Source of the DNA: an uncultured Chlamydiales bacterium
Lineage (GTDB): Bacteria; Chlamydiota; Chlamydiia; Chlamydiales; JAAKFR01
DNA: 64,000 nucleotides
Assembly: GCA_963699155.1 (NCBI GenBank)
Contig: OY969414.1
Location: 363,757-427,756 of the forward strand
Direction of reading: 5' to 3'
Within the stretch, counting starts at the first letter, position 1. Every line of letters starts with the position of its first letter. The notes beneath the pieces are model-generated. The model did not search any database. It was not told the origin of the DNA and saw only the letters and a program-made list of their open reading frames with translations. The translations under genes were made by a program, and so were the position numbers. This document shows, piece by piece, positions 46,731 to 47,046 of the stretch.

Positions 46731-47046
46731 GGTAGATTAGAGATCTGTCGGGCGGATCTGTCACTAGCGTGTCAGATCCCCCTGTGCCTCGGTTCACAAG
46801 TAAACTTGTGAACTCTCGGACAACCCATCAAAAACCCTCCACTGGAGGCTTTTTGAGGTACCTTGTCCCTTTGAGCCGCATCTTGCTTTGCCATATCGCT
46901 TCCTCGCTGGGCGCCTACGGCGCGGTCCCGCACTGCCTGGTGCTGGTTAAACCCTGAGGCGGTGAAAGTATCTCAGGTTACATCTTGCGTGAGTAATGCC
47001 TCGCCACTCCTGCCTGCGAACGGGGGTCTATGCACAGCACTACCCT
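46731..47046 (-). ncRNA. candidate large structured ncRNA (partial raiA-motif-like core)
   Basis: Non-coding and GC-rich; terminal GGTAG/CTACC pairing and at least five hairpins; minus-strand TATAAT at 47137-47132. Confidence 0.55.

Follow-up and report, generated by a model that had tools for sequence, protein, structure and literature searches.

A block of repeated DNA between uvrD and an ABC permease gene

The window analysed here is a stretch of 64,000 nt from an uncultured Chlamydiales bacterium (own genome, G000; 2.40 Mb, rated 100% complete), and this text concerns the non-coding DNA between two divergent genes in it. On the left lies a uvrD/pcrA-type helicase gene (44637..46556, minus strand; PF00580, E 2.4e-89; PF13361, E 2.4e-72), whose ATG at 46556 is in frame with the open reading frame (ORF) 44637..46715, and on the right a gene for an FtsX/MacB-type ABC permease (47224..48363, plus strand; PF02687, PF12704). 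The gap between them measures 667 nt (46557-47223). Positions 46731-47046 of this gap had been read in a preliminary description as one large structured non-coding RNA with a core resembling the raiA motif. Our analysis points to another origin: the gap holds, at 46590-47097, one copy of a species-specific composite repeat that was probably built by successive insertions of non-coding palindromic elements and is probably not an RNA gene.

When positions 46700-47130 were compared with the own genome by BLAST, 74 matches were obtained. The same comparison for the intergenic region gave 97 high-scoring segment pairs, with a coverage of 1 on both flanks and of 7-53 across 46595-47097. The individual modules were counted with nhmmer in two rounds, which was used over blastn-short as the latter fragmented the matches. 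In the own genome this gave 36 matches for the G-box, 4 for the linker, 22 for hp1-hp2, 26 for H, 21 for P5, 54 for M3 and 13 for P3. The control flanks (46470-46589 on the left, 47098-47223 on the right) gave one match each and are single copy. The block has a twin at G000:321727-322232 with 99.2% identity over 506 nt, and the likeness stops at the same bases as the block itself. The borders proposed before, 46731 and 47046, border nothing. The neighbours of the twin are a GH15 hydrolase and FliW, and also at other copies the block adjoins unrelated genes.

The anatomy of the block was derived from an alignment of eleven copies together with a genome-wide map of all modules. In about 10 islands the modules recur in the order G-box, (linker), hp1, hp2, H, P5, (M3), P3, T, G-box, where brackets mark the linker and M3. 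In a crude map of 1913 ORFs, which account for 88% of the bases, the majority of copies fall outside ORFs, e.g., 40 of the 54 M3 matches and 20 of the 22 for hp1-hp2. Several copies that fall 'inside' ORFs are in frames made by the repeats themselves, such as a frame of 329 aa running through nine 111-nt units.

The block as a whole was not recovered from relatives by BLAST: parts of it were seen in 5 of 41 relatives and in 4 of 300 genomes of the order, and these were H or P3 only. Upstream of the uvrD orthologues of two same-genus genomes (G002 and G003, with 80% and 73% aa identity, respectively) the DNA is AT-rich and unrelated to the block.

Just past the block end, at 47098-47130, lies a short degenerate piece that is complementary to the start of the P 5' arm (GAGCCGCATC / GATGCGGCTC; inverted repeat I7, also I5 and I8), which may be the remnant of a second, inverted arm. 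All 3 sequencing runs listed for this DNA are DNA runs of one soil-metagenome study, none being RNA. In reads of two of them (short contigs) a joint of 46911 to 47031 was found as a candidate empty site, but it carries 6 letters of a paralogous copy and is thus not an empty site at this locus.

The G-box, linker and hp1 modules and a repeat-targeting insertion sequence

The block begins with the G-box (46590..46680, plus strand), a G/C-rich hairpin module made of AAGGGGAGGGCCCC...CCCCTCCCCTT (inverted repeat I2) followed by CTCTCCC/GGGAGAG; 27 of its matches in the genome are near full length. It is followed by the linker (46681..46745, plus strand), which holds GGTAG and has three near-full-length matches, the window included, while more diverged equivalents can be read in other copies. 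Next comes hp1 (46746..46784, plus strand; inverted repeat I4), the 5' part of the backbone element, with the hairpin TGTCGGGCGGATCTGTCAC...GTGTCAGATCCCCCTG. Among 8 copies three stem variants of hp1 keep the pairing (GGATCTG/CAGATCC, GGTTGC/GCAACC and TTCC/GGAA), and one hybrid copy breaks it.

The G-box also forms the interior of 400-bp elements that are bounded by an inverted repeat of IS4 type. The corresponding IS4-family insertion sequence (IS) has a length of 1379 bp, scores 125 bits with NF033592 (cut-off 115) and ends in a 21-nt inverted repeat. Three full copies are present (G000:C1:2208703-2210081, 2274383-2275750 and 941457-942883), along with short derivatives of ~120-400 bp (G000:C1:445378-445776, 1229303-1229701, 2084516-2084915 and 2172708-2172827), of which those of ~400 bp carry the same 21-nt inverted repeat as the complete IS. 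Both the IS and its derivatives insert right after hp1: on the outside they are bordered by hp1 at one end and by hp2 or P5 at the other, and a sister copy represents the empty site. At the three full copies apparent 6-nt repeats, one of them imperfect, were seen by eye. The IS4-family element is a site-specific, repeat-targeting IS. The repeat islands also contain nests of IS481- and IS4-type elements.

The palindromic element P and its distribution in the order

P consists in the window of a 5' arm (CCCTTTGAGCCGCATCTTGCTTTGCCATATCGCTTCCTCGCTGGG; 46866..46911, plus strand) and of an apical hairpin (GGTCTATGCACAGCACTACC) plus 3' arm (GGAAGCGATCTGGCTTTGCAATCTGCGGCC; 47025..47097, plus strand). 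The two parts were assigned from the sister copies, the consensus fold and an imperfect inverted repeat of 32 nt, I1, which pairs 46872-46903 with 47068-47099 and was absent from the preliminary description. The window copy stops at 47097 and lacks the T module that comes next in other copies.

A consensus of eight copies, from the own genome and from a genome of another family, folds into one long branched hairpin (-44.9 kcal/mol) with 43 pairs, 18 of which show double-sided changes. A larger alignment was fitted to the covariance model of P (R3). It has 29 rows, 5 of them reverse-strand duplicates, and its copies are related, those from the same genome not being independent. In this alignment 88% of the cells are paired compared with 73% in shuffles, and 35 of the 43 pairs have changes on both sides. 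The alignment reaches a covariation score of 0.356; shuffles give 0.143, none of 500 being as high, and slid partners 0.045-0.09. The forward strand outscores the reverse strand at the same place, e.g., with 155 versus 44 bits. The homologues with covarying stems that would be expected of a structured RNA were thus found for module P (46866-46911 plus 47025-47097), with copies in other families of the order and in an alignment that is model-fitted, but not for the block as a whole.

R3 matched 14 of 149 sampled genomes of the order and, in a second sample, 20 of 149. By family the second sample gave 11 of 22, 5 of 17, 2 of 17 and 1 of 18 genomes. No match was obtained in the 14 other genomes of the window's own family or in 26 genomes of a family with 1.0-1.2-Mb genomes. 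Three genomes hold at least 21 copies each (every scored candidate matched) and three more at least 20, 17 and 17, respectively; these counts come from genome sampling in which part of the candidates was scored, and are floors. P is patchy, reaches high copy numbers, and is common in another family; in the window's own family it was found in this genome alone. This fits horizontal spread of mobile DNA. A blastn search with an uninterrupted hp1-H-P-T copy against plasmids and phages gave no match.

The copies of P mostly occur as convergent pairs (inverted doublets). Two pairs were examined, and both are giant inverted repeats with arms of 309-325 nt: in one genome the arms match over 309 nt at 96%, while in another three segments next to each other, with lengths of 148, 113 and 71 nt, match at 97%, 86% and 90%, respectively. 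A mobile-element end had been named in advance as an outcome that would contradict an RNA gene. For P the multiple copies, the patchy distribution, the inverted doublets and the insertion that breaks the window copy point to mobile DNA.

One of these doublets (L119, G282:C72:7200-9200), a pair of 309-nt hp1-P-T arms with 96% complementarity, encloses 810 nt with the decayed gene of an IS5-like transposase, broken by frame shifts into three pieces (DDE_Tnp_4, 27 bits). This gene was considered as a trace of the autonomous parent of the doublets. The DDE_Tnp_4 piece was found nowhere else in G282, G031, G246, G224 or G000, so that a separate IS that landed there is more likely.

The inserted units H and M3

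Between hp1 and P lies the H unit (46787..46868, plus strand; inverted repeats I6 and I3). It is composed of CCTCGG, a small hairpin with the perfect stem GTTCACAAGT..ACTTGTGAAC, CTCTCGGACAACCCATC, a hairpin of A-run, GC stem and T-run, and GAGGTACCTTGTCC. The unit comprises ~90 nt, 82 nt here, and hardly varies among eight copies with more divergent flanks. Other genomes have an hp1-like hairpin ('ATGTCGGG...CCCCGC') immediately next to 'CCCCCTTGAGC', where P starts, with no H at this junction, which identifies H as an insertion; the argument rests on reading alignments. By eye, CCCC flanks H on both sides.

With the covariance model of H (R1) 24 copies were found in the own genome and 12, 18 and 5 in three same-genus genomes. 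Six other genomes of the family gave single weaker matches (two adjacent ones in one of them), and 32 genomes of other families gave none. Compensatory changes occur in 3 of the 12 pairs of the terminator-like stem. The small hairpin ahead of this stem differs wholly in sequence between genomes, yet was always read as a hairpin.

At 46836-46848 both strands show a terminator-like signal. Of 12 solitary H units 8 have the 3' end of a crude ORF within 150 nt, versus 3.9 expected (P ~0.016, permutation). With its GC-rich stem and T-run near gene 3' ends, H is a candidate intrinsic (Rho-independent) terminator. The hairpin might terminate transcription in both directions, or insulate uvrD and the divergent ABC-transporter genes from each other; any effect that the block has here would be incidental.

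A single H-like element is present in each of five genomes from other genera of the family (L082, L083, L084, L085 and L087), always close to a tRNA-Ser gene (anticodons cga, gga and three times tga); four of the elements lie downstream of it on its strand. The H-like element has an end resembling the tRNA 3' end (TCCTCTTCCG) in four of the five loci inspected. The 3' flanks of tRNA-Ser genes contain a conserved piece that resembles an inverted copy of the tRNA 3' half, split by a hairpin.

M3 (46912..47024, plus strand) is a 113-nt unit in the 5' strand of the P apical hairpin, recognized by comparison of sister copies. In the window it stands between GCTGGG and GGTCT, in one sister copy after the apical hairpin and in another after P3, while copies without it read GCTGGG|GGTCT or GCTGGG|AGGGT. 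As M3 occupies three different positions in aligned sister copies it is an insertion. GGG was seen by eye on both of its sides. The 54 matches of M3 fall in 36 loci and include tandem arrays of 9, 4 and 3 units and five arrays of 2. Its consensus fold is weak (-5.6 kcal/mol on the plus and -6.5 kcal/mol on the minus strand), with compensatory changes in 1 of 10 and 0 of 13 pairs, respectively.

The covariance model of M3 (R2) found 53 copies in the own genome and 3 weak ones in one same-genus genome, and no match in 38 other genomes. Two exact-pattern scans of 185,579 species genomes gave 0 matches each, where the patterns were strict and the own genome was possibly left out. The largest array (G000:C1:739782-740774, ~312 kb beyond the window end) consists of nine units of a 111-bp repeat of the M3 family; the frame of 329 aa stays open only because 111 is a multiple of 3. 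Other M3 arrays have units of 112 nt and cannot hold such a frame, and coding repeats were dropped as an explanation. CRISPR was likewise dropped, the array units being near-identical and without spacers, as was a retron or group II intron end, for which no Rfam match was obtained.

M3 was also observed behind tRNA genes. Five of the 36 loci lie within 150 nt after a tRNA gene (Ser-gga, Ser-tga, Leu-taa, Asn and Phe), compared with 0.43 expected (0 of 5000 permutations). These copies are outside the window (G000:C1:771026-771131, 998214-998317, 12168-12274, 1444637-1444742 and 756328-756765). In the same-genus genome G001 (L090, L092) weak M3-like copies follow tRNA-Ser(gga) at a distance of 56 nt and tRNA-Ser(tga) at ~590 nt, and the copies linked to tRNA-Ser may therefore be ancestral. 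No integrase was found beside the two tRNA-Ser genes of the own genome that are followed by M3: of nine ORFs scanned four have no Pfam family, and none of the other five is an integrase.

Folding of the stretch and the search for raiA

Several observations that had led to the assumption of a structured RNA were reproduced. The stretch 46731-47046 is free of ORFs in so far as the longest ORF overlapping it has at most 62 aa. The listed hairpins were recovered as inverted repeats I4 (GGCGGATCTGTCAC/GTGTCAGATCCCCC), I6 (the perfect stem within H) and I3 (TCAAAAACCCTCCA/TGGAGGCTTTTTGA). The plus strand folds with -124.9 kcal/mol (z -4.35) and the minus strand with -124.3 kcal/mol (z -3.73), and for neither strand was any of 100 dinucleotide shuffles as good. 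The structure of the stretch exceeds chance; the low folding energy arises because it is the sum of the palindromes of the block. At the gathering score Rfam matched only a tRNA in the whole window (22470-22544), in agreement with the reported lack of tmRNA, RNase P and signal recognition particle RNA.

The helix GGTAG/CTACC, which had been taken to close the ends of the RNA, joins the linker to the apical hairpin of another module, P. It cannot be a feature of the family because the linker has only 4 matches and because M3 separates the partners in the window copy only. The block is not one large RNA either: it is a mosaic of modules with 4-54 copies each, its insertions differ between sister copies, and it has no counterpart upstream of uvrD in two same-genus genomes.

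According to passages of PMC10861870 the raiA motif is an RNA of ~200 nt with helices P1-P6 (figure legends label up to P8), two pseudoknots and 51 conserved positions, which occurs in Bacillota and Actinomycetota and is conserved within clades there. Its Rfam entry RF03072 is a covariance model of 209 positions that encodes helices P1-P6 and conserved nucleotides, with a gathering score of 101.3 bits. The four short minus-strand strings from which the likeness had been deduced are present at the coordinates given for them. However, cmscan of 46450-47300 at E<=10 gave 10 weak matches, all far below their gathering scores and none of them raiA. Over the whole genome RF03072 had a single match of 9.1 bits (E 9.6), located elsewhere (G000:158932-159009) and far short of the gathering score. 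In addition, the four strings are split between M3, with two of them, and P, which are unrelated repeat modules. With 54 matches for M3 and 21 for P5 the modules that bear the strings do not behave like a stable gene conserved within clades. RaiA RNA, in turn, we take to be essentially single-copy per genome. The block shares with it a length of similar order and dense hairpins, and differs in having no model match, in being multi-copy and composed of unrelated modules, and in the taxon.

Successive insertions as the probable origin of the block

The copy numbers, the modularity, the differing insertion points, the targeting by the IS4-family element, the absence of raiA and of a family-wide global fold, and the conserved pairing in P and in the H stem are direct observations, and among the explanations considered they are best accommodated by non-autonomous palindromic repeats of the ERIC/BIME/MITE (miniature inverted-repeat transposable element) kind. 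The oldest layer would be a hairpin chain hp1-P-T of ~300 nt, which many genomes of the order carry, mostly as convergent inverted doublets, and of which one arm without T would be left here. In this lineage H, the terminator-like unit, would then have landed between hp1 and P, after which the composite would have multiplied to about 10 copies. M3 would have landed later inside the apical hairpin of P, being found elsewhere as a solitary or tandem unit. The upstream G-box would form a fourth layer, common to the short derivatives of the IS4-family IS that inserts repeatedly after hp1.

The modules would thus have spread as DNA. Derivatives with the inverted repeat of the IS at their ends would be moved in trans by the IS4 transposase. 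The modules hp1-P-T, H and M3 would have been moved by some enzyme, or have spread by recombination and gene conversion, and the 99% twin would reflect a recent duplication or conversion.

Compared with the description of a MITE, the elements are short, non-coding and multi-copy. Terminal inverted repeats are present in the doublets of other genomes and in the 400-bp IS4-type elements, the window copy being a single arm with unlike ends (46590/47097). A cognate transposase is indicated for the IS4-type derivatives, as they match the ends of the 1379-bp IS.

Some results weigh against this origin. No transposase for hp1-P-T, H or M3 was found in the genome, in which Y1/RAYT (PF01797) and TnpB (PF07282) gave 0 matches, while the PF01797 search matched 6 of 14 control genomes. 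For the IS5-like remnant a single occurrence, within one doublet, was seen in 5 genomes searched. Target-site duplications are short and ambiguous (GGG, CCCC) and were assigned by eye, and an empty site at this exact locus was not seen. The pairing of P is kept far better than the neutral decay of a dead transposon predicts. In the 24 forward rows G.U pairs are more numerous than A.C pairs on the modelled strand (46 versus 22), a hint of single-strand selection to which the preference of the model itself contributes. Finally, there is covariation in the H stem, and the unpaired sequences beside it are conserved between genera.

Alternative readings

These results leave some room for other explanations. 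A broader reading, which we regard as tentative and rather improbable, takes hp1-P-T as an undescribed order-wide element of environmental chlamydia-like bacteria whose fold is selected on one strand, either as a transcribed multi-copy RNA or as a mobile element that requires a folded single strand and an enzyme, and which moved between families. In the same reading, conserved elements of the tRNA-Ser 3' flanks would be the source of M3 of this genus and also of the H-like unit of other genera. Its part on movement between families is based on the presence of P in 11 of 22 genomes of one family versus 1 of 15 sampled in the own family, i.e., this genome.

Slightly less probable still is that hp1-P-T is a multi-copy structured RNA. 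In that case the window copy, in which H and M3 interrupt hp1 plus P, would be a disrupted representative of a family whose fold is selected at the RNA level. As variants, the element could be a transcribed ERIC-like hairpin that controls the stability of the neighbouring mRNA, or could move via an RNA intermediate. The covariation of P across families (18 of 43 pairs in eight copies; 35 of 43 pairs in 29 rows), the excess of G.U over A.C on one strand and the forward score far above the reverse one speak for an RNA, and ERIC elements are co-transcribed and affect mRNA decay according to passages of PMC3184786. But the same pattern is expected if a recombinase recognizes a single-stranded DNA hairpin or if palindromes are repaired by template switching, and inverted doublets of ~300-nt arms are typical of DNA elements. 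The 29-row alignment is, moreover, subject to the limits given above, i.e., model fitting and related copies. We retain this possibility because the well-kept pairing of P and the missing cognate enzyme are not explained by insertion alone.

It seems very unlikely that the block is a structured 5' leader of uvrD and the divergent ABC-transporter genes or regulates them jointly. Its position between the two genes would suit this function, and one promoter-like site (47185-47157, minus strand) lies beyond the repeated block, so that a uvrD transcript starting there would contain the block; another (47182-47211, plus strand) is outside the repeats. However, the minus-strand site matches the consensus in 9 of 12 positions, and 2 sites were found versus 0.8 expected. 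The H hairpin with its T-runs on both strands would stop such a transcript. The unrelated neighbours of the block elsewhere (GH15 hydrolase and FliW at the twin) and the block-free uvrD orthologues of the two same-genus genomes argue in the same direction. The wider neighbourhood is ordinary, with rpoN (sigma-54; 43241-44626, minus strand) directly downstream of uvrD and an ABC ATPase gene (48338-49033, plus strand; PF00005) after the permease gene.

A divergent raiA-motif RNA or another single large housekeeping RNA is hardly credible, as nothing but the low folding energy and four short strings in the order ascribed to the raiA core speaks for it, and against it stand the missing RF03072 match at the locus, the best genomic score of 9.1 versus 101.3 bits, the lack of raiA among the 10 weak matches, the split of the strings over two unrelated modules and the 54 copies of M3, which bears two of them and has no conserved fold on either strand.

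Comparison with known repeat families and significance

As a composite of palindromic insertions the block resembles several repeat families of other bacteria. Internal-insertion variants and compensatory changes in ERIC elements were reportedly described by Wilson and Sharp in 2006. P, too, is an imperfect palindrome (~140 nt) that was enlarged by an insertion inside the palindrome (M3) with the pairing maintained, lies mostly outside ORFs on the crude map and differs strongly in copy number between related genomes. In passages of PMC3184786 the ERIC/IRU elements of Enterobacteriaceae are imperfect palindromes of ~127 bp that are classed as MITEs and are co-transcribed. A target duplication of the ERIC type (TA) was not seen here, and P is part of the longer hp1-P-T arm, mostly found as inverted doublets of 309-325-nt arms; sequence likeness to ERIC is not expected.

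The same source (PMC3184786) describes bacterial interspersed mosaic elements (BIMEs) as clusters of repetitive extragenic palindromic (REP) units with other motifs. Mosaic clusters of palindromic modules in varying combinations and orientations are likewise found here, and as with the REP-targeting IS1397, ISKpn1 and IS621 an IS lands repeatedly at one position of a palindromic repeat. In difference to these systems the modules have 40-140 nt instead of 20-40 nt and tens instead of hundreds of copies, the targeting IS belongs to the IS4 family and not to IS3 or IS110, and no RAYT/Y1 (PF01797) is present, so that the units are not REP/REPIN elements with a RAYT.

Further parallels are found among families outlined in passages of PMC3184786. 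BOX of Streptococcus pneumoniae is modular with a tandem middle unit, comparable to the M3 arrays of 2-9 units, and SPRITE of S. pneumoniae is a mobile unit like a Rho-independent terminator, comparable to H. RPE of Rickettsia are palindromic repeats of 105-146 bp, and the Correia elements of Neisseria are another repeat family of comparable kind (PMC3184786). All of these are likenesses of kind only and no homology is claimed; M3 has no conserved fold, and among its copies the oldest seem to be linked to tRNA-Ser 3' flanks. We know of no such link for BOX, SPRITE, Correia elements or RPE. Rickettsia, the host of RPE, has an intracellular lifestyle. Among the papers listed by full-text searches none describes such repeats in chlamydia-like bacteria, which is weak evidence of absence.

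The case shows that a convincing 'large structured RNA' with z around -4, many perfect hairpins and no ORF can consist of nested palindromic repeats, and that BLAST against the same genome settles the question of RNA versus repeat in one step. It also provides a first anatomy of repeat families in this group: a long hairpin with unusually well-kept pairing and a patchy distribution across families, a terminator-like mobile hairpin, an array-forming unit of 113 nt that clusters behind tRNA genes, and an IS4-family element with a fixed landing site in the repeat. The elements mark recombination-prone, variable gaps of the genome, and might be used to mark strains or to reveal exchange between co-resident lineages.

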